The notes beneath the pieces are model-generated. The model ran no database searches and was not told the origin of the DNA. It was given only the letters and a program-made list of their open reading frames with translations. Below, one piece after another: positions 43,442 to 55,875 of a DNA stretch of 64,000 bases. Every line of letters begins with the position of its first letter. Position 1 is the stretch's first letter. The stretch lies in the IMG/VR virus record IMGVR_UViG_3300008262_003982. The stretch is one strand, 5' to 3'. Source of the DNA: a virus. Its lineage: Duplodnaviria > Heunggongvirae > Uroviricota > Caudoviricetes. The position numbers were made by a program, and so were the translations under genes.

Positions 43442-43513
43442 GGGCCAATAGCTTAATGGTAAAGCAACCGACTCATAATCGGTCGAGTCTTGGTTCAATT
43501 CCAAGTTGGCCCA
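43442..43513 (+). tRNA. tRNA-Met (anticodon CAT)
   Basis: Acceptor GGGCCAA/TTGGCCC, anticodon loop cuCAUaa, T-loop TTCAATT, CCA encoded. Confidence 0.8.
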
Positions 43514-43521
43514 CCAAACAT

Positions 43522-43593
43522 CTGGCGTTCGTTCAACGGATAGGACATGATTCTTCTAAAGTCATTATAGAGGTTCGATTCCTCTACGCCGGA
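43522..43593 (+). tRNA. tRNA-Arg (TCT)
   Basis: Acceptor CTGGCGT/ACGCCGG, anticodon loop cuUCUaa, T-arm AGAGGTTCGATTCCTCT. Confidence 0.75.
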
Positions 43594-43614
43594 CCATGTA
43601 TTAAATAACGCAAA

Positions 43615-43697
43615 GCCAGAGTGGTGGAATGGTATACACAGCAGACTTAAAATCTGCCGCTTGCAAGGGCATACGGGTTCGAGTCCCGTCTCTGGTA
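43615..43697 (+). tRNA. tRNA-Leu (TAA), type II
   Basis: Acceptor GCCAGAG/CTCTGGT, anticodon loop cuUAAaa, long variable arm, T-arm ACGGGTTCGAGTCCCGT. Confidence 0.8.
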
Positions 43698-43706
43698 CCA
43701 AACATT

Positions 43707-44240
43707 ATGAACAAAAGTCCTACTCGCGGAACCTTTCACAGTCAATGCAGAATTGAAGATGTCATTGCGGAAGGAGGAGATCCTGCCACTGACGAAGATG
43801 TTCAACGAGCTTTAGATCTTGAACGCATGATCAACGAACATCAGGCTCAACGCGAAGCCGACGAACGGTGGCGAGAAAACAATCTTGAATATGATTTGCG
43901 TAGCACCAAGTGGGTTTGCGACAAAGCCAAGGCCAGCGATACCTACGCTCAAAACATCTACGCAGCCTTGTGCAATCAAGACTGGCAACGCAACGAAGTA
44001 TGGCCTTTGCTAAAGGGAGAGACCTACAGTTGTTCGTGGCGCTATGCCGGGGGTATTGTTGCCGACATGCGTGAACAAGGTGACTATATTGATTGGTACT
44101 GTTCGGGCATAGGCGATGGACTGGGCAATGGTGATGCTGACGGTGTTAAAAGATATGTACCCGAAGGACATGTCACAGAAGAAATCCAGGAAGACTTTTT
44201 TAAGTTGGGCTGGATCCCAGTAGATAGCGGGGATGAATAA
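43707..44240 (+). CDS. hypothetical protein
   Basis: The listed ORF starts inside tRNA-Leu. The first ATG after the tRNA is at 43707. 177 aa. Confidence 0.45.
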   Translation: MNKSPTRGTFHSQCRIEDVIAEGGDPATDEDVQRALDLERMINEHQAQREADERWRENNLEYDLRSTKWVCDKAKASDTYAQNIYAALCNQDWQRNEVWPLLKGETYSCSWRYAGGIVADMREQGDYIDWYCSGIGDGLGNGDADGVKRYVPEGHVTEEIQEDFFKLGWIPVDSGDE

Positions 44241-44390
44241 ATAGGTATGTGCTCAATCCCATAAAAAAACTACAAGAAAATCTAGCCCGAGACTTGGTCA
44301 GTCTGGAGGACACAGACTTGGTGTCGGAACAACAACTAGACAAAATTACTGATGCATACGCACAAGTGTATGACATCATCTCCAAAGCAG

Positions 44391-44419
44391 TTGACAAGCC
44401 CAAAGAATAAATATATACT
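44391..44419 (+). promoter_or_regulatory. promoter TTGACA-N17-TATACT driving tmRNA precursor
   Basis: Sequence motif immediately upstream of the acceptor piece. Confidence 0.5.
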
Positions 44420-44455
44420 GCGAGTTATTGCTGTATGAAGCCGAGAGAAAAGTGT

Positions 44456-44490
44456 TCTGGACGGGGGTGCGAATCCCCCCAGGTCCACCA
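44456..44490 (+). ncRNA. ssrA: tmRNA acceptor piece 3' end (T-arm plus 3' acceptor strand plus CCA)
   Basis: T-stem GGGGG/CCCCC with loop TGCGAAT. CAGGTCC pairs with GGGCCTG at 44706, with one G·U. Discriminator A and an encoded CCA. Confidence 0.7.
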
Positions 44491-44705
44491 TAAGGAAGTT
44501 TAATGATAGGTTATGTTTTATTTTTGTTATTTTGGTTAGTGTTTGGTGTATTTTATTTTACACGTGATACCACATTGGACGAAGAGAAAATAAAAAACTG
44601 TGAGTTATGGTAATATGGAAAATTTAGCAAAATTTTTATTAATTGTTTTTCCAATATTATGCTTGTTGTTAACAACATTAAGCGTAGATTAAGTTTCTTT
44701 ATGAT

Positions 44706-44866
44706 GGGCCTGACCTAGATTCGACAGGGCAAAGAGTAACAGAGTGGACAGCACGGTAGGCGATGACCGTAAATCAAGCAAAACTTTTATCTGCAAATGA
44801 TGAAAAATTCTTGATGGCCGCTTAAGGTCGTCTAGGGTAGGAAATACCTCGTAACAGAAACCACCA
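44706..44866 (+). ncRNA. ssrA: tmRNA coding piece (5' acceptor strand, D-like GAUUCGAC, tag ORF)
   Basis: GGGCCUGACCUAGAUUCGACAGGG matches the tmRNA 5' consensus GGGGCUGAUUCUGGAUUCGACGGG. Tag frame GCA AAT GAT GAA AAA TTC TTG ATG GCC GCT TAA gives ANDEKFLMAA. Confidence 0.7.
44793..44825 (+). other. tmRNA tag-peptide reading frame (A)NDEKFLMAA-stop
   Basis: Resume codon GCA. The ...AA-stop ending is typical of SsrA degradation tags. Confidence 0.65.
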
Positions 44867-44894
44867 AAATGGCTGCGAAAGTAGCCATTTTCTT
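44867..44894 (+). terminator. rho-independent terminator
   Basis: AAAATGGCT-GCGAAAGT-AGCCATTTT hairpin followed by TTTCTTT. Confidence 0.6.
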
Positions 44895-44921
44895 TGACAT
44901 TCTCAGTGTTTGTGCTATATA
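44893..44921 (+). promoter_or_regulatory. promoter TTGACA-N17-(T)ATATAAT for porin gene
   Basis: Sequence motif. Confidence 0.5.
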
Positions 44922-44971
44922 ATACTCTATGATCGACATTTGATCATTTCATTAACAAGGAAAAATTACTT

Positions 44972-45862
44972 ATGAAGAAAGTTCTAATTGCGTTGACCCT
45001 GGCAGTTGCTGGTGTTGCAAGCGCACAAGTTGGTATCTATGGTCGTGTTGGCACTTACCTTGACAACACCAAAACTGGTGCTTCCACCGTGCAAGGCATG
45101 GCCAATGACTTGAGTCACTTTGGCATTCGTGCTACTGAAAACTTAGGTGGCGGATTAACAGCTCGTGCCACATACGAGACCGGCATCCAAGCCAACAGCC
45201 CAGACACTGGTACTGACACTAGACTTGGCGATCGCCAAAGCACCGTGGGTATTGCTCACAAAATGGGTAGCGTTGATCTTGGTCGCAATGTTCACACTCA
45301 CTTCTTGGCCATCAGCGACAATGATCCATTTGGCACATTGATTGGTAGCTCAGCTGCCGACGTGCATAACCTGCGTGGTTTGCGTTTGAGCAATGCCGCT
45401 TTCACTTCTGTGAACTTTGGCAATGTCTCTGCTAACTTTGATCGTAGCACTGGTGCTGTTGGCACTGCCGCTGATCCTTATGCCGCATCCGTGATTGCCG
45501 CAGTTGGACCTGCTGTGTTGACTTATGCTCGTTACGAAGCTGGCGCAGAAACCAGTGACGTGTTGGCTGCTCGTGCTAAATTTGGTGCAACCACTGTGTT
45601 TGCCAGCGCAAGCGACAACAAAGGCGTTGCTGCCAACACCAACCGTGCTCAGTTGGTCGGCGTGGCACACAAACTTGGTGGACCAGTCACAGTGAAGGCC
45701 AGCTATGGTCGCATTGAAAATGGCATCAAGAGTTACAACGTAGGTGCTGAGTATGCTTTCAGCAAAAAGACCTATGCACAAGTTTTGTATCGTACAGTTG
45801 AGGGAACCTCAGCAGCCACTGATGTCAAACAAGTAGCAGGCGGGTTGGTCGTACAGTTCTAA
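44972..45862 (+). CDS. outer-membrane general porin (Gram-negative Porin_4-like beta-barrel)
   Basis: Signal peptide MKKVLIALTLAVAGVASA. AQVGIYGRVGTYLDN...ATENLGGGL matches the N-terminal strands of Neisseria/Burkholderia-type porins. C-terminal ...VVQF (terminal Phe). Confidence 0.7.
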   Translation: MKKVLIALTLAVAGVASAQVGIYGRVGTYLDNTKTGASTVQGMANDLSHFGIRATENLGGGLTARATYETGIQANSPDTGTDTRLGDRQSTVGIAHKMGSVDLGRNVHTHFLAISDNDPFGTLIGSSAADVHNLRGLRLSNAAFTSVNFGNVSANFDRSTGAVGTAADPYAASVIAAVGPAVLTYARYEAGAETSDVLAARAKFGATTVFASASDNKGVAANTNRAQLVGVAHKLGGPVTVKASYGRIENGIKSYNVGAEYAFSKKTYAQVLYRTVEGTSAATDVKQVAGGLVVQF

Positions 45863-45884
45863 AACAGAAGTAGTACAAACCAAA

Positions 45885-45913
45885 AAACCCGCCAAGTAGG
45901 CGGGTTTTTTTAT
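45885..45913 (+). terminator. rho-independent terminator
   Basis: AAACCCGCC-AAGTA-GGCGGGTTTTTTT. Confidence 0.8.
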
Positions 45914-45928
45914 GGCAGTAGACCAATA

Positions 45929-46070
45929 ATTGGATTGGTGCTATACTAGACACAAGTTAGAAAAACAGCGAAGTTTGTAAAGACCCTGCAACAAGGCGGG
46001 GCATTTACAAAACAAGTTGACCAGTAAAGCAGGAGATGCTATACTAGAGACTAGTTAGAAAACAAAGGCA
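45929..46070 (+). promoter_or_regulatory. tandem repeated promoter-like elements (...GGTGCTATACTAGACACAAGTTAGAAAAACA / TTGACC-N17-GATGCTATACTAGAGACTAGTTAGAAAACA)
   Basis: Two copies of about 30 nt starting GCTATACTAGA. Each is followed by a strong hairpin (46001..46038 and 46106..46140). Confidence 0.4.
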
Positions 46071-46380
46071 GTTGATCGAAACTACTTTGAAGTTCGTTAA
46101 AAATTTAATTTTGTATAGTGCCCCAGATTAAGTTCTGGGCACTATATGTAAACACATTAGGGTTACCTAGTCCGTTAGGGGTGAACAAAGGCTGATTCGA
46201 GCCGGATACCCATGAAGCAGGAGGGCCTAAGAGTAGCGCGAGACACCATCGAGCGTGAGGGATAAGGCTACACCAAACTCCAGGAAGGCGGCGGAACTAC
46301 TGGGCCTGTAATGAGGTCTTGATGCAAGTTGGTGATGCGTGTCAAGAACTTCCCTAATGTGTTTTCATATAGTGAACTAT

Positions 46381-46452
46381 GGAGCGTTCGTCTATCGGTT
46401 AGGACACAAGCCTTTCACGCCTGTAAGAGGGGTTCGATTCCCCTACGCTCTA
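46381..46452 (+). tRNA. tRNA-Glu (TTC)
   Basis: Acceptor GGAGCGT/ACGCTCT, anticodon loop cuUUCac (one mismatch in the anticodon stem), T-arm AGGGGTTCGATTCCCCT, CCA encoded. Confidence 0.6.
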
Positions 46453-46658
46453 CCAAATCCCGTTACTACTTTCGTTAAAGTAGCGTTTGATTAGCGATAG
46501 AGATCCGGTGGCAGAAGACCGTAAGCGTAAGGATGGAGACTACCCTTACAGACTCTGATAGGCAGAATCTCACTGCACACAGACTTTGAATAAATGAGAT
46601 GGACAGAGTAACTGCTCAATTAAGGGCTGGCGTGGAACCCAGTAGCTTATCCTAATTT

Positions 46659-46730
46659 GGTCTCAAGGTGTTCATGGACGCACACAGCACTGTCACTGCT
46701 GAGGAGGGGGATCGTTACCCCCTGGGACCG
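46659..46730 (+). tRNA. tRNA-Asp (GTC)
   Basis: Acceptor GGTCTCA/TGGGACC, anticodon stem CAGCA/TGCTG with loop cuGUCac. T-loop is the unusual ATCGTTA. CCA encoded. Confidence 0.6.
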
Positions 46731-46740
46731 CCAAGTTTAT

Positions 46741-46828
46741 GGACATGATGTGTCAATTACCTGAGGCTGGTATGAAACTTCGTAATAGCATACGAGGAAG
46801 AAGTGGGTTAGATTCCCATTGTTGTCCA
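46741..46828 (+). ncRNA. tRNA-like element (T-arm plus 3' acceptor plus CCA recognisable; non-canonical body)
   Basis: 3' end GTGGGTTAGATTCCCATTGTTGTCCACCA followed by the same AAGTTTATGG tail as tRNA-Asp. The 5' strand GGACATG pairs only 5 of 7. Confidence 0.3.
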
Positions 46829-46839
46829 CCAAGTTTATG

Positions 46840-46928
46840 GCGTCATAGGATGTAACGGAGTGTGGTTTGCTTCAACCTTGAATGATCATCAAGGTTTTCT
46901 TGCGTGGGTTCGAATCCCACATGATGCC
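46840..46928 (+). ncRNA. tRNA-like element (89 nt; acceptor GCGTCAT/ATGATGC and T-arm GTGGGTTCGAATCCCAC present; body contains 23-nt perfect palindrome)
   Basis: AACCTTGAATGATCATCAAGGTT palindrome at 46866..46888 where the anticodon arm should be. No clean D-arm. Confidence 0.3.
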
Positions 46929-47532
46929 TCAAGTTTGAAGCCACATCGCCTGGACACTTCCTCGCAAGAGCACTAGGTCCTGCAACCGTGGCTTCTCCCC
47001 GACGTTCCGCTTGGTTAGCGGATACTGTGACCCGCAGGATAAGAAGTGAGGTGACTCTCAAGGGTGGTAGTCTTCTTACCGAAAGGCCGTTAGCAACACG
47101 ATAGCGGTCCCTGTCGGGAAGCGGGTGGAAGGTGTGTGAGAATTGCGGGGCAACCCAAGAGATGATGCACTACAATTACCGCCGGGGGATGCAGAGCAAC
47201 TAATTTTCCTGATGCTGGGCAGGACAAGGCCCAGCAGTCCTATCCCAAGGATCACCTGAGCCAGAACTCAGGGCCGATGAGCATCGCAAGCCCTACCACG
47301 GGTGCCGATGGACGATAAATTGGGAAGCAGTAGTTAGCAGTGGGAGGATTTGATTTTCAAATCCGAACTTTTAGTTTTTATAGTCAAGCACCGATAAAGG
47401 TATCGTGTAAGGACGCTTACGCTATTCGGGTCCAACCGGCCGGGAACGGATCCTAATATAACTGCTATCGGCTATTGCACTCTTAGCGGAGGACGCATAA
47501 ATTGAGCATCTCTCGGTGCTTGACTATAGAAT

Positions 47533-48504
47533 CTATTCAATGTCAATTTGGCAAAAACTGTTTTTGCCGCCAAATCCAAAATTGGCCTTGAGTATGCGTT
47601 TGCCCGGAAACGGCACAGCATCTACGATGATCCTTGAATCTTTGACTATGAGATCACCAGCTAACACATTGGGTCTTAGGGTTTTTGCACGGTAATCGTC
47701 AAAACTCATGCACATTTCAATGGCGCCGCTGGCTGAGATACAGTGCCCTATGCGGCTTTTGTAGCTGACAATAGGTATGTCTTTGTGAACTAAAGAATTA
47801 AAAACATTGTACTCAAATTGATCTCCCACTGGAGTGCCTGTTGCATGTGCATTCCAAAAATCAATGGTGTCAAAATTGATGCCAGAAATATCTCTGGCCA
47901 ATTGGTGCGCATCACCTGGATTGGCTATGAGTGTGGGGTTGGTACGAAAGATATAATTGCTGATTGTGGCAAATGCACTCATGTTGAATTTTACACTTGG
48001 ATGTTTTATCAACATTGCAGCCATGCCTCTACCCATTCGAAATCCAGTACTGGTTGAGTCAAATGCTCTTCCTGAGGATTGATCCAATGCACCCATACTG
48101 GCAAATCGCCACATGTGAAGTTCGTCATCAACTAAATTATCAGCACAAAAAACAATCACTGGTAATTGGTGTTGCAAGCTCACCATGGATGCAGTGTACA
48201 AGGCATGCATGCTTCCACTGCATTCTGCTACCACATTCGTAACAAATCCGTTGAGATGCAATTTTGTTGCCACAAGACTGACCAAGGCGTCAATGGTACT
48301 GTTCCTAAGTTCAGTAGGACGTCCTCGTTTTTTATTGAGCTCAAAAAAGTCTCGGCTGGGTTTATTTGTTGGTATCAATCCTCCTTTGGAAGAAGTTACC
48401 ATTGGCCAGTGTGGCTGAACAATGTTTGCTAGACATGTGCTATCAACGAATTGTTCAATGTTCCAGTCGAGACTGTGGTGATAGGTTAAGATTTCAGTGA
48501 TCAT
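47533..48504 (-). CDS. beta-ketoacyl-(ACP) synthase-like condensing enzyme (KAS; thiolase fold)
   Basis: FWNAHATGTPVGD (the HGTGT-type His motif), C-terminal NFGFGGKNS (the GFGG motif), and a candidate active-site Cys in AECSGS. 323 aa, shorter than FabF. Confidence 0.65.
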   Translation of the reverse strand: MITEILTYHHSLDWNIEQFVDSTCLANIVQPHWPMVTSSKGGLIPTNKPSRDFFELNKKRGRPTELRNSTIDALVSLVATKLHLNGFVTNVVAECSGSMHALYTASMVSLQHQLPVIVFCADNLVDDELHMWRFASMGALDQSSGRAFDSTSTGFRMGRGMAAMLIKHPSVKFNMSAFATISNYIFRTNPTLIANPGDAHQLARDISGINFDTIDFWNAHATGTPVGDQFEYNVFNSLVHKDIPIVSYKSRIGHCISASGAIEMCMSFDDYRAKTLRPNVLAGDLIVKDSRIIVDAVPFPGKRILKANFGFGGKNSFCQIDIE

Positions 48505-48595
48505 GTGGGGTACTTATTTGCCCACTGTAACACGACTGCAGAAAACTGTTACAGACTATTTTGGATAGATAAACAACAAATTTATCCAAAACTGT

Positions 48596-48624
48596 TTGAC
48601 AACAAAAGACGTTTGTCTTACAAT
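48596..48624 (+). promoter_or_regulatory. promoter TTGACA-N17-TACAAT
   Basis: Sequence motif. Transcribes into the ORF-poor GC-rich region. Confidence 0.5.
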
Positions 48625-48625
48625 A

Positions 48626-49620
48626 GATACATAGGGCAGTTTATTGTCCTGTGCAGTATGGTTCGCCCAGCTGTACGAAGAATAACTGGGGTGACCCAGC
48701 CAAAGGATGTATGCCTACATAAGTCCGCCAGCAATGGTTCATGTAAACAAGCCTGCTCAGGTCCGTGAGGATCCGATCACTGATAAGACCGGTGGTTGTA
48801 ACAATGACGCTGGGAGTATAGGAAAGAGCTGTAACTTACCGGCCCGCAAGGGTAACCGGAGTTGCAGAAAAGTAACAGGTGGTGCTGACTTCTATACAAA
48901 ACCAGCCCAGTTAATTGGTATGAGAAAGGGTAGCGTATCGGTCCGAGGGGTTGCACCCAAGGGCTCGTATGCAGTTTGAGTGGTTGGTGGAGGTACGCGA
49001 AAGCCGAGACCCGACACTGATCGCAAAAGACGTCTGAGTAGTTCGCAAGACAAAAGGAACGTGGTGTGTTGTATTTTGTATTCCAAAAGAGTATGAAGCA
49101 ACTGAGTCAGCACATCGCAGTAGGTTGATATAGCTCATCGTAGAGCAATTCCCTGTTAAGGAATAGGCTGTGGCTTCAAAACCACTATCTAACATAAAAG
49201 CAAAGACTGACTCGGTCATGTGTGAAAAGTATCTAATGCTGTAGCCGCAAGGCAATACAGTCAGACGTAACTCGCAAGGTGAAATCTGTTTATACTGGAA
49301 GTTTCGTAACTGTTTAGCGACAGTGAATGGCTCTAAAGGTCAACGGGATAGATGGTGTAGAGTAGCATGTGATGACAAGACTACTGCCTGTCTTTAAAAA
49401 CGGCGATACTGGTAACAGACTGTGATACATAGCAATATGGTTGCAGTGGAAATCGGAAGAAAGCAGACTCGCAAGGTTTGTAATAATGTCCGAGGTGTTA
49501 CTGGGTTAGGATGTATTCTCAGTCCGCCACTTTATATACAAACGCACTCCGTACCCGTTGGTGGTTGCTCAATTCAATGAATTGTTCCCCAAGCATAGAG
49601 TGTGTTTCTATATAAATAAT
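48626..49620 (+). ncRNA. candidate large structured ncRNA (about 1 kb, GNRA tetraloop-rich)
   Basis: Sits downstream of the promoter at 48596. No credible ORF. Repeated cGCAAg/cGAAAg hairpins: CCCGCAAGGG, GCGAAAGC, GCCGCAAGGC and CTCGCAAGG, the last occurring twice. Confidence 0.4.
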
Positions 49621-49624
49621 TCAA

Positions 49625-49696: not shown

Positions 49697-49735
49697 ACCA
49701 ATTCAGCCGAAAGGCTAAATAACTTTAACACAGTG

Positions 49736-49764
49736 GTTGACCTCAAAAGGTAAATACTGTACAA
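49736..49764 (+). promoter_or_regulatory. promoter TTGACC-N17-TACAAT
   Basis: Sequence motif. Confidence 0.5.
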
Positions 49765-49765
49765 T

Positions 49766-49946
49766 AGGACTTATGATGAAAACACAATATTGTTCACTGC
49801 TACCCAAGTTTGCCCAGACACCAGTTTGGTCACACGCCTATGGTCGCATGAATAGCATTCCAGGAGGCAGAGGGTCCTAAGTAGTATACAACCGTATCTT
49901 ACCCAAGGACCCAGGCGTAAAAACCCTGGGTTTTTTCATTTAGTGC
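49766..49946 (+). ncRNA. candidate small RNA (promoter-to-terminator unit, about 180 nt)
   Basis: Bounded by the promoter at 49736 and the terminator hairpin CCCAGG-CGTAAAAA-CCCTGGGTTTTTT at 49918..49946. Could alternatively encode a 35-aa peptide starting MMKTQYCS... Confidence 0.4.
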
Positions 49947-50118
49947 AACGGCAACGCGAGCCTGTATCACTCTAAACTACAAATGGGCGGCCTCGGGGAT
50001 GGCTTATGTTCTTGTACATAAAAAAATCCGAGCGTATTAAAACATTCTTTACAAACAGGCAGCCTAAGTAGTTTAGAATGTTTTAATACACACATTCGCA
50101 AGAGTGTGTTAAAATTAT

Positions 50119-50189
50119 GTCTCGGTGGTGTAATGGCAGCATGACGGTCTCCAAAACCGTTCGTGGGGGTTCGAGTCCCTCCCGGGATG
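50119..50189 (+). tRNA. tRNA-Trp (CCA)
   Basis: Anticodon arm ACGGT-cuCCAaa-ACCGT, T-arm GGGGGTTCGAGTCCCTC, acceptor GTCTCGG/CCGGGAT. Confidence 0.75.
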
Positions 50190-50198
50190 CCAAAATTT

Positions 50199-50270
50199 GG
50201 GCTGGTAGTGATAATGGGAGCACAGGGGCTTTGCAAGCCTTTAGTCGGGGTTCGATCCCCCGCCGGTCCA
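50199..50270 (+). tRNA. tRNA-Ala (TGC)
   Basis: Acceptor GGGCTGG/CCGGTCC, anticodon loop uuUGCaa, T-arm CGGGGTTCGATCCCCG. Confidence 0.75.
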
Positions 50271-50278
50271 CCAAATAT

Positions 50279-50368
50279 GGAGCAATTGATGCTATGGCGT
50301 GTGCATCGGCGGACTGTAAATCCGTCCCCTCGTGGTAAACATTCTTGGTTCGACTCCAAGTTGCTCCA
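50279..50368 (+). tRNA. tRNA-Tyr (GTA), type II
   Basis: Acceptor GGAGCAA/TTGCTCC, anticodon loop cuGUAaa, long variable arm, T-arm CTTGGTTCGACTCCAAG. Confidence 0.8.
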
Positions 50369-50411
50369 CCATATTTTTGTAGTAGGCTCGAGTGCCTACT
50401 AAGTAGATTAT

Positions 50412-50484
50412 TCCCTAGTAGCACAGCGGTAGTTGCACTTGACTGTTAATCAAGGTGTCCGTGGTTCGATCCCACGCTGGGGAG
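50412..50484 (+). tRNA. tRNA-Asn (GTT)
   Basis: Anticodon arm CTTGA-cuGUUaa-TCAAG, T-arm CGTGGTTCGATCCCACG. Confidence 0.8.
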
Positions 50485-50492
50485 CCAAGTCA

Positions 50493-50579
50493 GGAAGACG
50501 GGCAGGACGGTAATGCAGCAGATTGCTAATCTGTAGATTCTAGTAATAGGGTCATAGGGTTCGACTCCCTAGTCTTCCA
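50493..50579 (+). tRNA. tRNA-Ser (GCT), type II
   Basis: Acceptor GGAAGAC/GTCTTCC, anticodon loop uuGCUaa, long variable arm. Confidence 0.75.
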
Positions 50580-50588
50580 CCACAATTC

Positions 50589-50659
50589 GCCCTACTAGTA
50601 CAATGGTAGTACACTGGTTTTGTAATCCTGTGATGGCAGTTCGATTCTGTCGTGGGGCA
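50589..50659 (+). tRNA. tRNA-Thr (TGT) (anticodon stem with two mismatches)
   Basis: Acceptor GCCCTAC/GTGGGGC, D-arm GTAC/GTAC, loop uuUGUaa, T-arm GGCAGTTCGATTCTGTC. Confidence 0.55.
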
Positions 50660-50873
50660 CCAAGTTTTGAGAGTGTCAGCAAGAGAAAGACACGCTAGGA
50701 AGATTCTTCGAAGGTCAACCTAGTGTAAAGCACGGGCGGCGTGATTCCGTACACAACTAAGTAATCAATCTGTGTGTTAAGTATTCCAAGTGACGTATCA
50801 CCCTCCCGGCCGGCTTTATTACACGGGTCAATGGTAGCAATAACAGTGATGCTACTACTCTCAAATTCAATAC

Positions 50874-50948
50874 ACCACCTTAGCTCATTTGGATTAGAGC
50901 ACTGTGCTACGAACGCAGGGGCGGGGAGTTCGAATCTCTCAGGTGGTA
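50874..50948 (+). tRNA. tRNA-Arg (ACG)
   Basis: Acceptor ACCACCT/AGGTGGT, anticodon loop cuACGaa, T-arm GGGAGTTCGAATCTCTC. Confidence 0.75.
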
Positions 50949-50991
50949 CCAACACATAGCCATACTCTCCCTTGACGAGTTAGGTCCCTGG

Positions 50992-52116
50992 CTATTGTAT
51001 AACTTCTTGCGCTAAATTTTCTAGCACACCAAACACTGAGTTGATTGTGTGTTGTGTGATGTTGCGCAGTCGAATCAGCTGGCTTGTTCGAGACACAAAC
51101 TGTTCTCGTTGAGCAGGTGAGTGCTGTATTGTTTCTAGCATACTACATGTATCAGTCATTAACTGTTTTTGTGTTTTGGTAAGTTTTGCAACTGTTAGTT
51201 GTTTTTGTATAACTGCAATCAACTGCTGACGTTCGAGAGTGGTAAGCACTTCTGACTGTAGCCAAACAGGATAAGATAAAGGGATCACATTAAATGGCAG
51301 TCGACGGACATTGGCGTATTCAAACAGTTCAATGATATTTTGCAAATTTAAAAATTGCAACACTGCCGACAAATGTATCTTTGCTCCGGGCAATGCCTGT
51401 TGTAGTGCAACAATGTTTGATTGCACAACTGACCATTGTGCCGGATAGCGTAAAAATTCAAATGTTGGCCCAGTACCGTCTACACTAACCATCACATCAA
51501 GGTCAGATATTTTTTGTAACCGCTCAAGATGTTTTTTGGTTAGTTGAGTGGCATTGGTAATAATTCGTGTTTTAAGATTTTTTTCAATAACCGCATCGAG
51601 CAATTCAATATTGTGTTTGGTTACAAAAAATTCGCCGCCAATAAAACCTATTGATTTAAGGTCTGGCAACTGTTTAATAACTTCAAGTGCATGATCTTCG
51701 TGATTGATCACTATTGATTGTTTAATCCATCCAAGTTTGGCATATTCCTGACCTGATTTGGTACTATGAGAAGGATTGCACGACAAGCAACTGAGATTAC
51801 ATGCGTTGCCAGGGAAAATTTCCAAGTCAACAATTTTAGTTTTGGTTTCATGCTCAAACACTTTAATATACTTGTTTCGGATACTAGGCAAGTTATTATC
51901 TTCGTCTACTTTGCATGCCTTGCATCCATCTGGCAATGATTCTTTTGTAAGCAAATGTTGCTGAAGAGACGCTAGTTCAGATGATTGCAAATAATCATTA
52001 ATCGTTGCGTACTGCTTGATAGGTTTGTAATTGCAACAAGGCCTAACAGTTGGATTGAGATCTTTATCAGTATACATATGAATACTAACAAATGGTTTTG
52101 GACAATATTTGTTCAT
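50992..52116 (-). CDS. radical SAM protein (additional N-terminal Cys cluster; function unknown)
   Basis: CNLSCLSC (CxxxCxxC) plus an N-terminal CPKPF...RPCC. 374 aa. Confidence 0.6.
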   Translation of the reverse strand: MNKYCPKPFVSIHMYTDKDLNPTVRPCCNYKPIKQYATINDYLQSSELASLQQHLLTKESLPDGCKACKVDEDNNLPSIRNKYIKVFEHETKTKIVDLEIFPGNACNLSCLSCNPSHSTKSGQEYAKLGWIKQSIVINHEDHALEVIKQLPDLKSIGFIGGEFFVTKHNIELLDAVIEKNLKTRIITNATQLTKKHLERLQKISDLDVMVSVDGTGPTFEFLRYPAQWSVVQSNIVALQQALPGAKIHLSAVLQFLNLQNIIELFEYANVRRLPFNVIPLSYPVWLQSEVLTTLERQQLIAVIQKQLTVAKLTKTQKQLMTDTCSMLETIQHSPAQREQFVSRTSQLIRLRNITQHTINSVFGVLENLAQEVIQ

Positions 52117-52177
52117 TCAAATACTTATTTTAAAAAGGAGAGTCTGTCATGAATAGTGACAAGAGTGACAAGATACC

Positions 52178-52249
52178 GGGGGTGTGGTGAAACGGTATCA
52201 CAGCAGACTTTTAATCTGCCAATTTCGGGTTCGAATCCCGGCGCCCCTA
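52178..52249 (+). tRNA. tRNA-Lys (TTT)
   Basis: Anticodon arm GCAGA-cuUUUaa-TCTGC, T-arm TCGGGTTCGAATCCCGG. Confidence 0.8.
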
Positions 52250-52340
52250 CCATATAAAAACACATTCAACTAATGACACGGGTGGTAGCCGTGTATCTTA
52301 GTGGGCTAACGAACTACTACGCCTGAGTGTGTTCCTATAT

Positions 52341-52412
52341 GGTGACGTTAGTTTAGTGGCAAAACCGCGGGTTGTGATTCCGCTGTCATGAGTTCGATTC
52401 TCATACGACACC
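52341..52412 (+). tRNA. tRNA-His (GTG) with encoded G-1
   Basis: The extra 5' G pairs with discriminator C. Anticodon arm GCGGG-uuGUGau-TCCGC. D-stem GTTT/AAAC. Confidence 0.75.
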
Positions 52413-52420
52413 CCAGACAT

Positions 52421-52509
52421 GCCCCTATAGTTTAATGGTAAAACGGCGGATTTATATCCCGTAAGCAACAGATAATTGGTTCATCTGGGTTCGACTCCCG
52501 GTGGGGGTA
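52421..52509 (+). tRNA. type-II tRNA, anticodon uncertain (possibly TAT)
   Basis: Acceptor GCCCCTA/TGGGGGT and T-arm CTGGGTTCGACTCCCGG are good. The anticodon arm is irregular. Confidence 0.4.
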
Positions 52510-52517
52510 CCAAACAT

Positions 52518-52589
52518 GGATGTATAGCATAATGGTAGTGCGCCTCCTTCATACGGAGTCAAGTGGTAGTTCGACTCTACTTACATCCA
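52518..52589 (+). tRNA. tRNA with CAT anticodon (elongator Met or Ile2/lysidine type)
   Basis: Acceptor GGATGTA/TACATCC, loop uuCAUac, T-arm GGTAGTTCGACTCTACT. Confidence 0.7.
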
Positions 52590-52604
52590 CCAAATAGTTT
52601 TTGT

Positions 52605-52675
52605 TCGGGTATAGTGTAATGGTAACACTACAGACTTTGACTCTGTCATTCTAGGTTCGAGCCCTAGTACCCGTG
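52605..52675 (+). tRNA. tRNA-Gln (TTG)
   Basis: Anticodon arm ACAGA-cuUUGac-TCTGT, D-stem GTGT/ACAC, T-arm CTAGGTTCGAGCCCTAG. U1·U72 mismatch. Confidence 0.7.
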
Positions 52676-52685
52676 CCAAGTTTTT

Positions 52686-52752
52686 GCCGTGTAGCTCAGA
52701 GGAAGAGCAATCGCTTGATAAGCGATAGGTCGACATTTCGAAACAAGCGGCT
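52686..52752 (+). tRNA. tRNA-Ile (GAT)-like with aberrant T-arm (possible pseudogene)
   Basis: Acceptor 5' strand, D-arm GCTC/GAGC and anticodon arm ATCGC-uuGAUaa-GCGAT are canonical. No pairable T-stem. Confidence 0.35.
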
Positions 52753-52794
52753 GTATTCTTAGCTGGTAGTATTTTGACAGCAATAGGATTTGTA

Positions 52795-52950
52795 GTGATT
52801 GTGGCGGCGGCTGTTGCTGTCAACAACATCATAAGTCGTTACTGGAAGCCTGTAAAAATTTTCACAGCAGACAGTTGGAATCTGGGCCACGGCACAAGAT
52901 TTGCTGAACCCCATGAACTTGACAAAAGTCAAGAACCCAAAGTAAAATAA
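52795..52950 (+). CDS. possible small hydrophobic peptide (about 52 aa, GTG start)
   Basis: An AGGA SD lies 6 nt upstream of the GTG. Hydrophobic N-terminal segment VIVAAAVAVNNII. Lies between tRNAs. Confidence 0.2.
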   Translation: MIVAAAVAVNNIISRYWKPVKIFTADSWNLGHGTRFAEPHELDKSQEPKVK

Positions 52951-52956
52951 AATACA

Positions 52957-53030
52957 CGGAGTATAGCACAGCCTGGTAGTGCGCCTGGTTTGGGACCAGG
53001 AGGTCCGAGGTTCGAACCCTCGTACTCCGA
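52957..53030 (+). tRNA. tRNA-Pro (TGG)
   Basis: Acceptor CGGAGTA/TACTCCG, anticodon arm CCTGG-uuUGGga-CCAGG. Confidence 0.8.
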
Positions 53031-53039
53031 CCAATAGAT

Positions 53040-53112
53040 GTAGGTGTGTGCCGAATGGCTAGGCGCCGGATTGCAAATCCGTATAATGCAGGTTCGAGTC
53101 CTGTCACCTACT
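53040..53112 (+). tRNA. tRNA-Cys (GCA)
   Basis: Acceptor GTAGGTG/CACCTAC, loop uuGCAaa. Confidence 0.7.
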
Positions 53113-53309
53113 CCAAGTTTAGAAAAGATGTGTGAAAAACTCATTGACTATGGGCCCAACTGCTAGGGACCTTAACGTTATCCAGGTGCCGCTGGGATTA
53201 AGTTCCAGACTGCTAGTCACAGTCGAACCATGTGCCAGGAAGGATGTGAGCTACCCGAAAGGATGTTCAGTACCTTTAAACGCAAAGCAGTATCTTTTTT
53301 AATTTTTTA

Positions 53310-53397
53310 GGAAGTGTGGCAGAGTTGGTTGATTGCAGCAGTCTTGAAAACTGCCGGCTCCGAAAGGGGTCCGTGAGTTCGAATCTCACCACTTCCA
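53310..53397 (+). tRNA. tRNA-Ser (TGA), type II
   Basis: Acceptor GGAAGTG/CACTTCC, anticodon arm GCAGT-cuUGAaa-ACTGC, long variable arm. Confidence 0.8.
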
Positions 53398-53405
53398 CCA
53401 TATAC

Positions 53406-53477
53406 GGGTGATTAGCTCAGCGGTAGAGTCGCTGCCTTACACGCAGTTTGTCGGGAGTTCGATCCTCTCATCACCCA
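53406..53477 (+). tRNA. tRNA-Val (TAC)
   Basis: Acceptor GGGTGAT/ATCACCC, loop cuUACac. Confidence 0.7.
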
Positions 53478-53485
53478 CCATTCAT

Positions 53486-53558
<73 letters not shown>

Positions 53559-53562
53559 CCAG

Positions 53563-53766
53563 TTAGATTTTAGGTGTAAGATGTTTGATGCGTTGATTCA
53601 CCACATGCTCGACTGAATTGTCGTTGTAGGCCATAGCAGCCAGCAAGCCTGTTAGATATCCGCGCTCGTAGGCCAACTGTTGTTGTTTGGTCACAAACGT
53701 TTTGCCCAATGTTTCCATTGCAAGCAAACGCTCTATTTTTTTGATGGAGTCTTGTTTGGTTTGCAT
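53563..53766 (-). CDS. hypothetical small protein (67 aa)
   Basis: Minus-strand ATG at 53766. The longer listed ORF runs across a tRNA. Confidence 0.3.
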   Translation of the reverse strand: MQTKQDSIKKIERLLAMETLGKTFVTKQQQLAYERGYLTGLLAAMAYNDNSVEHVVNQRIKHLTPKI

Positions 53767-53777
53767 GATGTATTTAA

Positions 53778-53851
53778 GCCCCGGTGACGGAATTGGTATA
53801 CGTGTTGGTCTTAGAAGCCAAATTTTAGGAGTTCGAGTCTCCTCTGGGGCA
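53778..53851 (+). tRNA. tRNA with Leu anticodon TAG but short (type-I) variable loop
   Basis: 74 nt. Acceptor GCCCCGG/CTGGGGC, anticodon arm TTGGT-cuUAGaa-GCCAA, discriminator A. Paralogue of the tRNA at 55057. Confidence 0.6.
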
Positions 53852-53892
53852 CCAAATTTAATGTAGCTTGCACAGACTTTTAAATACACTGT

Positions 53893-54666
53893 ATGGCTAC
53901 AATTACTCAAATAGAACAGTACTGGGATCAACAACCTTGTAATATAAAGCATGGGTTGGCACCAGAAGGCACAGAAGAATTTTGGAACAACATCAATCGT
54001 CGTAGATGGTTTGTTGGGCCGCATTTGTGGCAGTTGGCCGACTTTGAAAACTGCAAGGGACGGCGGGTGCTAGAACTAGGATGCGGCATTGGATCTGATG
54101 CTGAACAATTTGTACGGCATGGTGCTGAATACGTTGGGATTGATCTTAGCAGTCGTAGCATAGAACTTTGTGAGCAGAGATTTACTGTTATGGGATTAGA
54201 TGCTGAATTCTATCACATGGACGCAGGCGACAGTCAGCGTGTTGCAGGGCTAGGACAATTTGATATGGTGTATGCTTGTGGTGTATTGCATCACTATCCC
54301 AATGTAGAACAAGTGGTCAGCAATGCTTACGCAAGTCTAGCATCTGATGGGGAGTTTCGTTTCCTAGTGTATGCTCGCAACAGTTGGAAATGGGCAATGA
54401 TTCAGTCTGGGCTGGACCAGTTTGAAGCGCAAGACAACTGCCCATATGCCAGAGTTTACAGTCAAGGAGAAATACAAAAACTGCTGGACGTACACTTTGA
54501 TATCAAAAGCATCAAGCAAGATTACTGTTTTATGTACAATGTAGAGCAGTACAAACAAGGAAATTATGTGTTGGAACCATGGTTTGCTGCCATGAGCGAT
54601 GCACAACGCCAGGCTGTCAATCAACAGCTAGGTTGGCATTTAAGCGTGATTGCCGCAAAGCAATAA
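53893..54666 (+). CDS. class I SAM-dependent methyltransferase
   Basis: Motif I VLELGCGIGSD. 257 aa. Confidence 0.6.
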   Translation: MATITQIEQYWDQQPCNIKHGLAPEGTEEFWNNINRRRWFVGPHLWQLADFENCKGRRVLELGCGIGSDAEQFVRHGAEYVGIDLSSRSIELCEQRFTVMGLDAEFYHMDAGDSQRVAGLGQFDMVYACGVLHHYPNVEQVVSNAYASLASDGEFRFLVYARNSWKWAMIQSGLDQFEAQDNCPYARVYSQGEIQKLLDVHFDIKSIKQDYCFMYNVEQYKQGNYVLEPWFAAMSDAQRQAVNQQLGWHLSVIAAKQ

Positions 54667-54685
54667 ATACAAAAAGGAGATTATT

Positions 54686-54985
54686 ATGGCTATAGTTGCT
54701 AAAACTGTGTTGGTGTATGCGTCTGTAGAAGATCGAGAAACAGCAAGAACTATTATCCCTTGGAGTAATTATTTACAAATTGTTGGAGACGGTGGGCATG
54801 ATGACTTTACTGTGGTTGGTACCGCAGGTCTCGACCCGTCAGAACTAGGTCCCACCCATTTAACTGTAACTCGAAAATGGGAAAACAAAAAAAATGCAGA
54901 AGACTTTGTTGAATGGATGACTGCACAACTTTCAACTTTTAGTGTTGTTCCTGTGTCATTTACTGTAGAAGATTATACAGAATAA
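54686..54985 (+). CDS. hypothetical protein
   Basis: ATG after an AAGGAG SD. 99 aa. Confidence 0.45.
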   Translation: MAIVAKTVLVYASVEDRETARTIIPWSNYLQIVGDGGHDDFTVVGTAGLDPSELGPTHLTVTRKWENKKNAEDFVEWMTAQLSTFSVVPVSFTVEDYTE

Positions 54986-55016
54986 CGCATGATCAGATTG
55001 TCTGACACAAGTTATA

Positions 55017-55050
55017 AAAACAGTAGGCCAGTCCTACTGTTTTTTTTTTT
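55017..55050 (+). terminator. rho-independent terminator
   Basis: ACAGTAGG-CCAGT-CCTACTGT followed by eleven T residues. Confidence 0.75.
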
Positions 55051-55056
55051 GCAAAT

Positions 55057-55130
55057 GCCCCGGTGACGGAACTGGAATACGTGTCTCTCTCAAAAGGAGA
55101 ATTCTGAGGGTTCGAATCCCTCCTGGGGTA
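55057..55130 (+). tRNA. tRNA with Leu anticodon CAA, type-I body (paralogue of 53778)
   Basis: The first 27 nt are almost identical to 53778. Anticodon arm TCTCT-cuCAAaa-GGAGA, discriminator A. Confidence 0.6.
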
Positions 55131-55156
55131 CCACTATCAATAAATATTTTTGAAAG

Positions 55157-55633
55157 TTGAAAATGAAAAAGCTCGATATAGCATCAGTAGCAGAATTTAT
55201 CCAGAAACAAACGCCCGAAACTCGCATCTACCTTGGCTGCGACTCTGAACGAATCAAAATTGACGGTACCTGGTATGCCGACTATGTGTTGGCCATTGTG
55301 GTACACATCAACGGCAACAACGGCTGCAAACTGTTTGGCGAAGTTCAACGCGAGCGTGTGTGGGACGTGAAACCAGGCAAACCTGCCATGCGTTTGATGA
55401 CCGAAGTGTACAAGGTTTCAGAACTGTATTTGAAACTGGCTGACGTACTAGAAGGCCGTCAAGTTGAAGTTCACTTGGACATCAACCCAGACGAACAATA
55501 CGGTTCAAGTTGTGTGATCTCGCAAGCTGTGGGCTACATCAAAGGAACATGCAATGTGATTCCGTTTGTGAAGCCAGAAGCATTTGCAGCATCATACGCG
55601 GCAGATAGATTTAAGAGTTTACGAGCTGCCTAA
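55157..55633 (+). CDS. hypothetical protein
   Basis: 158 aa ORF. Confidence 0.45.
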   Translation: MKMKKLDIASVAEFIQKQTPETRIYLGCDSERIKIDGTWYADYVLAIVVHINGNNGCKLFGEVQRERVWDVKPGKPAMRLMTEVYKVSELYLKLADVLEGRQVEVHLDINPDEQYGSSCVISQAVGYIKGTCNVIPFVKPEAFAASYAADRFKSLRAA

Positions 55634-55646
55634 TAAGTAACGGAAT

Positions 55647-55717
55647 GCAGGATTAGTTTAGGGGTAAAATAGAACCTTGCCAAGGTCCAGTCACCAGTTC
55701 GATTCTGGTATCCTGCT
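55647..55717 (+). tRNA. tRNA-Gly (GCC)
   Basis: Acceptor GCAGGAT/ATCCTGC, loop uuGCCaa, T-arm ACCAGTTCGATTCTGGT. Confidence 0.65.
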
Positions 55718-55724
55718 CCACTTA

Positions 55725-55795
55725 GCTCTCATAGTATAAAGGCATTACACTACATTGGTAATGTAGAAACACTGGATCGTTACCAGTTGGGAGCA
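55725..55795 (+). tRNA. tRNA-Thr (GGT)
   Basis: Anticodon arm CTACA-uuGGUaa-TGTAG. T-loop is the unusual ATCGTTA. Confidence 0.65.
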
Positions 55796-55803
55796 CCAAT
55801 TCT

Positions 55804-55875
55804 CGGCCCTTGGTGAAATGGATATCATGCTTGTCTTCGAAACAAGCGGTGGGAGTTCGATCCTCTCAGGGCCGG
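55804..55875 (+). tRNA. tRNA-Arg (TCG)
   Basis: Acceptor CGGCCCT/AGGGCCG, anticodon arm CTTGT-cuUCGaa-ACAAG. Confidence 0.75.

Follow-up and report, generated by a model that had tools for sequence, protein, structure and literature searches.

Phage tRNA clusters and prokaryotic tRNA arrays, such as those of T4, T5 and XacN1 (Tran et al. 2016, PMC4758250), are dense runs of 20-30 or more tRNA genes on one strand that serve most amino acids and are interspersed with small open reading frames (ORFs) and homing endonucleases. Such phage tRNA islands are already known, as are type-I tRNA-Leu (in Streptomyces and in mitochondria) and UAU-type tRNA-Ile. Here we describe an island of the same build in the IMG/VR virus record IMGVR_UViG_3300008262_003982 (Caudoviricetes), of which a stretch of 64,000 nucleotides (nt), hereafter the window, was analysed; all coordinates are 1-based on this stretch. 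Between 43442 and 55878, all on the + strand, ARAGORN finds 28 tRNAs, one more than the minimum of 27 claimed by an earlier reading made from the sequence alone (the sequence-only reading), together with a permuted transfer-messenger RNA (tmRNA). This translation island of a large phage differs from the described clusters and arrays in that the tmRNA, a GOLLD RNA and other structured RNAs accompany the tRNAs. Our best account of it as a whole, to which we assign a probability of about 0.7, is that most of the atypical members would be working tRNAs, their architectures held by selection across a large phage lineage and bacterial tRNA arrays. Two type-I tRNA-Leu genes would function in translation, a five-armed tRNA(UAU) would read AUA, and an altered T-loop would be a tolerated swap; one Ile-like sequence would be a deletion scar, and two tRNA-like units would mimic part of a tRNA.

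A 2023 review (PMC9976931) gives the identity set of the Escherichia coli leucyl-tRNA synthetase (LeuRS) as A73, U8-A14, A15-U48, G18G19, A20a and T54:A58, and reports that neither the anticodon nor the long variable arm is needed by this enzyme, which still charges an arm-less minimal tRNA-Leu. According to the same source, Leu and Ser tRNAs are long-armed everywhere but in animal mitochondria. The closest described counterparts of the Leu genes considered here are animal mitochondrial tRNA-Leu and the type-I tRNA-Leu(CAA) of Streptomyces coelicolor, which is leucylated by its own LeuRS in a system in which it was important for charging that the loop had exactly five nucleotides (PMC6614811, Nucleic Acids Research 2019). 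Our genes are like these in having a Leu anticodon with a 5-nt variable loop, in coexisting with type-II tRNA-Leu and a single LeuRS, and in keeping U8-A14 and the elbow.

The two genes in question are tRNA-Leu(TAG) at 53778..53854 and tRNA-Leu(CAA) at 55057..55133, both on the + strand and both 77 nt long. They fold as standard cloverleaves with variable loops of 5 nt (ATTTT and ATTCT, respectively), so that they have no long class-II arm (a stem-forming arm that exceeds 10 nt); both carry A73 and an encoded CCA, and the CAA gene has a G1-U72 pair. Their anticodon loops, CTTAGAA and CTCAAAA, are 7 nt long with U33, and their Rfam scores of 59.6 and 53.2 bits lie above the gathering threshold of the tRNA family (RF00005, 29 bits; a second Rfam scan admitted matches at E<=1). 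ARAGORN and folding thus agree with the sequence-only reading on the Leu anticodons, A73 and 5-nt variable loops. That reading had also named what would speak against it, namely assignment to another isotype through a different anticodon-loop register or decay into pseudogenes; instead, the register is normal by ARAGORN, both scores are above threshold, the stems covary and the D arms are of the Leu type. Its description of the pair as near-identical does not hold: 58 of 77 positions are identical, and the shared parts are the acceptor and D arm only.

For comparison we used 80 related IMG/VR loci that were retrieved with the RNase-H-like ORF of the island (contigs up to 343 kb; L-numbers, L001-L442, are labels of comparison loci). 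Each has a similar island, and the set is unbiased, having been chosen without regard to any tRNA feature. Short Leu genes of 76-78 nt account for 25 of the 54 TAG genes in these loci, 9 of 16 GAG, all 7 AAG, 3 of 35 TAA, the single CAG and 23 of 56 CAA genes, the last anticodon being represented by every length from 76 to 85 nt. In sister phages, type-II Leu genes match the short ones in acceptor stem and anticodon arm, an orthologous replacement of type-II genes that also supports the Leu assignment. When cases are counted by locus and anticodon, a short Leu gene occurs alone in 68, a long one alone in 84 and both together in 4. The Ser tRNAs (84-95 nt) and Tyr tRNAs (83-93 nt) of the same phages have the arm in every case. 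Since the arm is used by seryl-tRNA synthetase and by bacterial tyrosyl-tRNA synthetase, its loss in Leu and retention in Ser and Tyr fit the synthetase rules. Beyond this set, 77-nt tRNA-Leu(UAG) genes, annotated as plain tRNA-Leu, are present in the cultured coliphages Escherichia phage TrudiRoth (T5-like, 78677-78753) and Escherichia phage 4MG; ungapped matches of 70-72 nt occur in phages of Salmonella (PVP-SE1), Cronobacter (GAP31), Klebsiella (KB57) and Xanthomonas (X1); and Leu genes of 77-78 nt are found in bacterial tRNA arrays of an Acidobacteriota and a Rariloculaceae metagenome-assembled genome (MAG). The expectation that phage tRNA-Leu is normally type II consequently fails for this lineage, for bacterial tRNA arrays and for several cultured coliphages, in which type I is common.

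In an ungapped alignment of 26 diverged short Leu sequences, 98.5% of the stem cells are paired, and 17 of 20 pairs show changes on both sides, a result reached by none of 500 shuffles; slid controls gave 33-48%. T8, A14, A15, G18, G19, A21 (the column number, equivalent to A20a), T49 (equivalent to U48) and A73 are invariant (26/26 for A73), and the T-loops are TTCGAGT or TTCGAAT, that is, T54:A58. The nearest neighbours of the D arms are Leu tRNAs in 52 of 60 cases for the TAG gene and in 41 of 60 for the CAA gene. Judged by their sequences, the 77-nt TAG and CAA genes are genuine Leu-type tRNAs, neither pseudogenes nor members of another isotype. They would descend from type-II ancestors that lost the variable arm and would have retained every element reported as read by an E. 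coli-type LeuRS. Because these identity elements are kept and the arm is reported to be dispensable, we infer that the host LeuRS would charge them with leucine, the codons read being CUA/CUG and UUG. They differ from the S. coelicolor case (PMC6614811) in being borne by phages and arrays, in spanning six anticodons and in being clearly derived from type II repeatedly; furthermore, A73 is invariant here, whereas the S. coelicolor LeuRS ignores A73.

The tRNA(UAU) at 52421..52512 (+ strand) had been counted among the canonical tRNAs, yet it is the most unusual member of the island. ARAGORN calls it Ile(tat), and Rfam scores it at 53.7 bits. It is 92 nt long and has five arms: a class-I body to which an extra arm is added at 52466..52478 (stem CAA/TTG, loop CAGATAA), a feature borne out by covariation across the family. 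The gene comprises an acceptor, a class-I D arm, an anticodon arm of 5 base pairs (bp) with the loop TTTATAT, the segment AAG-CAA-[CAGATAA]-TTG-GTTCAT, a normal T arm, A73 and CCA, and its cloverleaf-plus-arm fold has an energy of -21.0 kcal/mol against -20.9 for the minimum free energy prediction. Class-II tRNAs are marked by a base-paired arm that separates the anticodon arm from the T arm, and this gene has one, but the class-II isotypes are Leu, Ser, bacterial Tyr and selenocysteine, and the anticodon is TAT in every member of the present group.

All 17 TAT tRNAs that ARAGORN calls in the 80 loci, and three more recovered with a regular expression, are 90-95 nt long and have a short stem closed by YAGATWA; the arm is absent from every non-TAT tRNA of these loci. 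Pattern scans for the armed tRNA(UAU) extended the group to at least 120 IMG/VR contigs, with 134 of the 135 unique pattern sequences from viral loci and the window being genuine tRNAs, and to GTDB genomes, where about 100 of the 120 matches listed are genuine armed tRNA(UAU). Bacterial carriers belong to Acidobacteriaceae, Xanthomonas, Pseudoxanthomonas, Stenotrophomonas, Microbulbifer, Marinobacter and Rhodobacterales; some of the copies lie within arrays of 20-31 genes and others are single genes (Xanthomonas, Microbulbifer, Marinobacter). Among cultured phages, the gene is annotated as 'tRNA-Ile' in the T5-like Vibrio phage Thalassa (78904-78996) and in Acinetobacter phage vB_AbaS_qsb1, and a BLAST match identifies an armed tRNA(UAU) in Vibrio phage henriette 12B8. 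Two chromosomal arrays, in the Acidobacteriota MAG (L203) and the Rariloculaceae MAG (L207), with 31 and 23 genes per 8-kb locus, hold the armed tRNA(UAU) and 77-78-nt Leu genes together; through this co-occurrence, the islands of phages and the arrays of chromosomes would belong to a single pool of mobile tRNA sets.

The arm consists of a 3-5-bp stem and the loop YAGAUWA. In 130 unique armed sequences, the loop-proximal pairs are paired in 100%, 99% and 97%, each with 4-6 pair types; none of 2000 shuffles reaches the observed value, and RNAalifold recovers the extra arm from the structural alignment. The loop is CAGAUUA in 77 sequences, CAGAUAA in 38 and UAGAUAA in 15; in each of these 7-nt loops, G-A-U takes the place of an anticodon and U33 gives way to A. 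A73 is present in all 130. The D arm is of a generic class-I kind, its neighbours being Gly, Val, Ile, Thr and Met tRNAs, not Leu. As a comparison set for the true anticodon loop, we used the 85 genuine class-I, arm-less tRNA(UAU) among the first 120 pattern matches listed. A38 is found in 43/130 armed and 65/85 arm-less phage sequences, U32 in 45/130 and 6/85, and a 31-39 mismatch in 33/130 and 0/85, respectively. This relaxation of the true anticodon loop in the armed class lends moderate support to a role of the arm in identity mimicry. A G1-U72 wobble tops the acceptor in 73/130 armed and 31/85 arm-less phage tRNA(UAU), as it does in the Leu(CAA) gene of the window.

Two described systems resemble the armed tRNA(UAU). 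The nematode nev-tRNA-Ile(UAU) (PMC3333845) likewise combines a UAU anticodon, a base-paired variable arm and A73, but nev-tRNAs are derivatives of tRNA-Leu and are charged with leucine, whereas in the phage tRNA the body is of class I and the 7-nt loop of the arm, YAGAUWA, is conserved in sequence, and AUA behaves as an Ile codon. Mycoplasma mobile decodes AUA with an unmodified-type UAU anticodon, not with lysidine, through a tRNA-Ile2(UAU) and an adapted isoleucyl-tRNA synthetase (IleRS) (PMC3575796). There, the enzyme (R865) and the ribosome are altered; here, an arm is added to the tRNA, the carriers infect or inhabit bacteria of the TilS type, and the window also retains a CAU gene of the Ile2 kind. 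With UAU in place of the lysidine anticodon (LAU), the efficiency of the E. coli IleRS falls 360-fold (PMC3575796). The armed tRNA(UAU) would decode AUA as Ile. Its arm loop would present the G34-A35-U36(-A37)-A38 face of tRNA-Ile(GAU) and so may give the host IleRS determinants that are absent from the UAU anticodon. That the arm is such a look-alike of the tRNA-Ile(GAU) anticodon loop, letting an ordinary, TilS-type IleRS charge a UAU tRNA, is a tentative proposal, and in our estimate the odds run clearly against it.

The meaning of the codons concerned was examined in 2285 ORFs from 201 loci by all-against-all comparison, in which aligned residues were tallied per codon and subject positions with the query's own codon were left out. 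ATA gave I35 V20 L15 and ATT I36 V23 L15; CTA gave L56 I12 and TTG L56 I9. Because the ATA columns cannot be told apart from the ATT and ATC columns, and those of CTA and TTG are like the columns of the other four Leu codons, AUA, CUA and UUG behave in this comparison of sequences as Ile, Leu and Leu, without reassignment.

The T-loop ATCGTTA is common to tRNA-Asp(GTC) at 46659..46733 (ARAGORN, fold, Rfam 36.2 bits) and tRNA-Thr(GGT) at 55725..55798 (ARAGORN, fold), both on the + strand. The sequence-only reading was right about this sharing, but the loop is not an unusual, private one; it belongs to a family-wide, covarying exchange of positions 54 and 58. Among 1025 unique parsed tRNAs, these positions are T/A in 949, A/T in 56, A/A in 15 and T/T in none, and A54/T58 occurs in Asp, Ile, Thr, Glu, Val, Lys, His and other isotypes. 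A54:U58 would thus be a tolerated, covarying swap of the T54:A58 pair. The eukaryotic initiator tRNA (A54, A60) is likewise a natural departure from T54, but here both partners are swapped (A54 with U58) and the carriers are elongator tRNAs of many isotypes (56/1025).

It is very improbable, in our view, that the short Leu-anticodon genes are decaying pseudogenes or chance tRNA-likes with no role in translation. They do lack an arm that is said to be universal in tRNA-Leu outside animal mitochondria (PMC9976931), the graded arm loss of the CAA lineage, from 85 to 76 nt, could resemble decay, and one real pseudogene is present in the same island. Decay is nonetheless hard to square with the 98.5% pairing and compensatory changes in 17 of 20 pairs across 26 sequences, unmatched in 500 shuffles, with the invariant identity nucleotides and CCA, with the 68 cases in which a short gene is the only one for its anticodon, with scores of 59.6 and 53.2 bits, or with the same form in cultured lytic coliphages. 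Improbable too, if a little less so, is that the odd tRNAs are recoding tools, the short Leu tRNAs or the armed tRNA(UAU) being charged non-cognately in the manner of nematode nev-tRNA(UAU). Nematode class-II UAU tRNAs are leucylated and not isoleucylated (PMC3333845), LeuRS ignores the anticodon (PMC9976931), and A73, present in 130/130 armed tRNAs, is shared with Leu and Tyr tRNAs; yet the ATA, CTA and TTG columns are normal throughout the 2285 ORFs, the generic class-I D arm of the armed tRNA has no Leu-type signature, and the short Leu tRNAs have the full one. An origin of the armed tRNA like that of nev-tRNAs was ruled out by the D-arm comparison and the codon columns. The chances are not far from even, finally, that Leu arm loss and A54:U58 loops reflect neutral drift or deletion bias in mobile tRNA sets, tolerated without adaptive benefit. 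The continuum of variable-region lengths in the CAA lineage, the dispensability of the arm for the E. coli LeuRS (PMC9976931) and the scatter of the 54:58 swap over many isotypes all favour such drift, whereas two things speak against it: many anticodon lineages, and carriers as distant as Acidobacteria arrays and coliphages, have arrived at the same loop length of 5 nt, and exactly five loop nucleotides were important for charging in S. coelicolor (PMC6614811). Neutrality is compatible with our account of function and differs from it on benefit alone; a benefit, if any, might be escape from host tRNA-targeting nucleases.

Several points weigh against our account. The type-I tRNA-Leu of S. coelicolor was left uncharged by the E. 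coli LeuRS (PMC6614811), and acceptance of type-I tRNA-Leu is therefore not universal among LeuRS enzymes. The codon-column test reports selection on codons and not the charge of these particular tRNAs, and the viral and bacterial sets of armed tRNAs derived from patterns are biased for loop sequence by construction, the 80-locus set alone being unbiased. With regard to the arm, arm-less tRNA(UAU) are common in phages (85 genuine among the first 120 matches listed), which rules out that the arm is obligatory for phage UAU tRNAs; 59% of the arm loops are CAGAUUA, with U where IleRS prefers (t6)A37; A33 replaces U33; and a 3-5-bp arm suggests no obvious reach to the anticodon-binding site of IleRS. 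The short arm, these two departures of its loop and the many phages that use arm-less UAU tRNAs agree better with another role, for which the odds seem to us somewhat short of even: the arm could be a handle for another factor (a U34-modifying enzyme or a phage protein), a guard against AUG reading, or a shield or decoy against anticodon nucleases. UAU tRNAs face a second problem besides charging in that they misread AUG on E. coli ribosomes (PMC3575796), and phage tRNAs have been proposed to evade tRNA-targeting defences (PMC10264068). A role of this kind would leave unexplained the invariant loop core, exactly G-A-U at positions 3-5, the restriction of the arm to tRNAs reading an Ile codon, and the fact that the IleRS determinant A38 is relaxed in the true anticodon loop of armed tRNAs but not of arm-less ones. 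Moreover, a common phage gene is implausible across carriers that include T5-like vibriophages, a 54-kb Acinetobacter phage, jumbo phages and bacterial chromosomes. We also discarded the notion that the arm loop is a 'self-codon' whose AUA pairs with the tRNA's own anticodon, for four pairs can form only with CAGAUAA and UAGAUAA and not with the majority loop CAGAUUA (77/130). T4 was dropped as an example of an arm-less UAU tRNA, its tRNA-Ile anticodon being CAU.

The Ile(GAT)-like gene without a pairable T stem, as the sequence-only reading described it, does lack that stem, but it is not an odd tRNA: it is what a deletion has left of a normal tRNA-Ile(GAU), namely the first 62 nt from the 5′ end. 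In relatives (L064, L034, L035, L026), the order of genes is Gln, Ile(GAT), Gly(TCC), a small membrane-protein ORF (MDMDQAAVFLAG...) and Pro. In the window, the 3′-truncated pseudogene at 52685..52746 (+ strand; Rfam 27.3 bits, below the threshold of 29) is joined, at the junction GACATTTCGAAAC/AAGCGGCTG, straight to codon 5 of this ORF, a remnant of which lies at 52747..52950 (+ strand) with its first 4-5 codons lost in the same deletion, and tRNA-Gly(UCC) is gone. Of the family's tRNAs that the window lacks, Gly(TCC) and Ile(GAT) are the most frequent two. Set against its relatives, the Ile(GAT)-like sequence is the scar of a deletion and no longer a working gene. Recombination with tRNA-Arg(TCG) through a shared 14-nt identity in the anticodon arm (TTCGAAACAAGCGG) was considered and rejected, as the relatives show a simple deletion from the Ile T-loop to codon 5 of the ORF, and the 14-nt identity is itself unremarkable, about 8 chance 14-mer matches being expected in 64 kb.

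Folding also confirms two tRNA-like units with an acceptor and T arm. In unit 1 (46741..46832, + strand), the acceptor, T arm and CCA are present, but a 7-bp hairpin occupies the interior where a tRNA would have its D and anticodon arms. Unit 2 (46838..46931, + strand) has an 8-bp acceptor, a weak hairpin, an 8-bp stem with the loop ATGATCA, a perfect T arm and the 3′ end TCAA; what had been taken for a 23-nt perfect palindrome is the 8-bp inverted repeat around this 7-nt loop. Neither unit is called by ARAGORN or has an Rfam match at E<=1. Each has one homologue among more than 300 loci, and the covariation amounts to one compensatory change each: unit 1 in L073 (1939-2030), with the change in the hairpin, and unit 2 in L134 (95% identity over 88 nt), with an A-U to G-C change and with CCA absent in both copies. 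Both units would be conserved acceptor/T-arm mimics that might act as processing punctuation or as decoys. Such mimics recur in islands: a further element with only an acceptor and T arm, and with an encoded CCA, follows the unit-2 homologue on the reverse strand of L134 (1310-1385). Leu-like tRNA-likes with a long arm, a 6-nt loop (GTTATA/GTTATG) and no CCA, which ARAGORN reports as 'tRNA-???', occur in L064 (7508-7598), L065 (502-592), L073 (4742-4832) and L080 (9491-9579).

The remaining tRNAs are more conventional, and the genes named here all lie on the + strand. The presence of three CAT tRNAs, one of them with the C1xA72 mismatch of initiators, was correctly recognised, although the initiator-type gene starts at 49626 and not at 49625; the presumed division into initiator, elongator Met and Ile2 matches three sequence classes kept across the phage family. 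The initiator-type gene (49626..49700; ARAGORN, fold) has C1xA72 and G11-C24 and belongs to the class CGCGGG..CCCGCAACCA. Its anticodon stem (A29-U41, G30-C40, G31-C39) has two of the three G-C pairs typical of initiators, and the full GGG/CCC stem is found in four unique initiator sequences of the family (e.g. in L012, L029 and L051). The elongator tRNA-Met(CAT) lies at 52518..52592 (ARAGORN, fold; loop TTCATAC, class GGATGTA..TTCATAC). The third, at 43442..43516 (ARAGORN, fold, family classes), has the anticodon arm CGACTCATAATCG, which recurs identically in the Ile2-like class of related loci. Ikeuchi et al. in 2005 reportedly identified C4-G69 and C5-G68 as determinants of E. coli TilS; with both pairs and a CAU anticodon, this gene fits a candidate tRNA-Ile2 of the lysidine type. 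An antisense Rfam match of the same interval to a motif overlapping plastid trnI-CAU scored 50.2 bits, below its threshold. As had been noted, tRNA-His(GTG) (52341..52415; sequence, ARAGORN, fold) encodes its G-1, at 52341, opposite C73. The tRNA-Leu(TAA) at 43615..43700 (ARAGORN, fold) is an ordinary type-II tRNA of 86 nt with a base-paired variable arm. The tRNA-Tyr(GTA) at 50279..50371 (ARAGORN) is a 93-nt variant with a 5-bp D stem and a 10-nt D loop; its sole Rfam match is to tRNA-Sec at 29.8 bits, below threshold, and the variant is kept in L063, L079 and L080 with a compensatory D-stem change. The tRNA-Gln(TTG) at 52605-52678 has a U1xU72 mismatch and G73. In L010 (897-979), an 83-nt tRNA-Thr(TGT) has a base-paired variable arm (GGG-AAA-CCC) and is another class-I isotype that gained an arm.

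The 93-nt tRNA-Tyr had been passed over in the sequence-only reading, together with the tmRNA, the GOLLD RNA and its embedded tRNA-like sequence, and the structured RNAs between the tRNAs. The tmRNA (44377..44916, + strand; ARAGORN; Rfam tmRNA_permuted 115 bits, beta_tmRNA 111.5 bits) is a two-piece molecule of the betaproteobacterial type with an AT-rich spacer between the pieces and the tag ANDEKFLMAA; the tag of its relative in L134 is ANDSQFALAA. GOLLD RNA is represented by its conserved 3′ domain at 49061..49525 (+ strand; Rfam RF02032, 204 bits), a match in which we noted no difference from the described family and which serves here as context, not as part of our claim. The conserved 5′ part reaches upstream to about 48580, and the upstream block is kept in 13 loci. 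Weinberg et al. in 2009 are said to have found that GOLLD adjoins tRNAs in phages and may contain one. The copy described here includes an Asn(GTT)-like tRNA-like at 49124..49194 (+ strand; Rfam tRNA 50.6 bits, fold) with two acceptor mismatches, without CCA and without an ARAGORN call. Between tRNA-Cys and tRNA-Ser(TGA), a candidate new structured RNA (53116..53309, + strand) has homologues in 23 loci; RNAalifold on 12 copies gives 44 pairs, 18 of them with compensatory changes, and no Rfam family matches it at E<=1. Five further non-coding blocks of the island (45860-46380, 46455-46660, 46930-47530, 49700-50118 and 50662-50874), kept in 4 to 30 related loci by blastn and devoid of long ORFs and Rfam matches, are likely to be additional structured RNAs co-transcribed with the tRNAs.

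The anticodons of the 28 tRNAs of the island (43442..55878, + strand; ARAGORN, Rfam, and Pfam for its few ORFs) span all 20 amino acids, and CCA is encoded at the end of every gene in the window. The Rfam tRNA model places 26 of the 28 above the gathering threshold, plus the tRNA-like within GOLLD; tRNA-Asp reaches its 36.2 bits only in the E-value search, and tRNA-Tyr has no match to the tRNA model. The set includes Leu TAA, TAG and CAA, the tRNA(UAU) for AUA and Arg TCT, and the window has a G+C content of 43.7% with TTG as its commonest Leu codon; the island would supply a near-complete tRNA set weighted to the A/T-rich codons of the phage. ORFs in or beside the island encode a porin, a KAS-like protein, radical-SAM enzymes, a methyltransferase, an RNase-H-like protein and rubrerythrin (Pfam), and the rest of the window carries a family-B DNA polymerase (PolB) and auxiliary metabolic genes. 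Judged by the tmRNA type and the porin gene, the host is probably a betaproteobacterium. A megablast search of the island against 50,697 phage records returned a tRNA-Ser match only, and hence no close cultured relative in that collection. A shared trailer, CCAAGTTT, follows many of the tRNAs (46730, 46829, 50659, 52675, 53112 and others) and may be a 3′-processing signal. In L073 (1424-1935), tRNA-Glu is followed by an inserted HNH-type endonuclease ORF and then by a duplicate of its own 3′ half, an arrangement that resembles homing-endonuclease traffic in islands. Related phages also have tRNAs with the amber-reading anticodon CTA (L008 4189-4267, L036 1880-1972, L037 1879-1971), which may be suppressors.

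In the full-text literature, older subscription papers (e.g. the T5 tRNA sequencing of the 1970s-80s) being outside its scope, we found neither a report on the prevalence or selective maintenance of type-I tRNA-Leu in phages or arrays nor an armed (long-arm) tRNA-Ile(UAU) in bacteria or phages. The armed tRNA(UAU) thus seems to represent a tRNA architecture that is very widespread and has gone undescribed, occurring in Vibrio and Acinetobacter phages, jumbo phages and the genomes of Xanthomonas, Acidobacteria and Rhodobacterales. Both it and the type-I tRNA-Leu recur, under selection, in phages and bacterial tRNA arrays that number in the hundreds. For annotation, this means that 77-nt Leu genes and 90-95-nt Ile(TAT) genes are to be expected in phages and should be scored neither as pseudogenes nor as intron-containing genes. 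In contrast to the long-arm rule of the reviews, our data show that tRNA-Leu without the arm is common and maintained by selection in a large phage lineage as well as in bacterial arrays and cultured coliphages. It amounts to a natural deletion experiment on LeuRS identity, for which laboratory systems exist in coliphages TrudiRoth and 4MG. If the extra arm of the tRNA(UAU) is an identity mimic, it would represent a new way of specifying aminoacylation, with the identity loop and the decoding loop on two different arms, and a possible design principle for orthogonal tRNAs and AUA reassignment. Mobile elements would then gain host-independent reading of AUA without lysidine.

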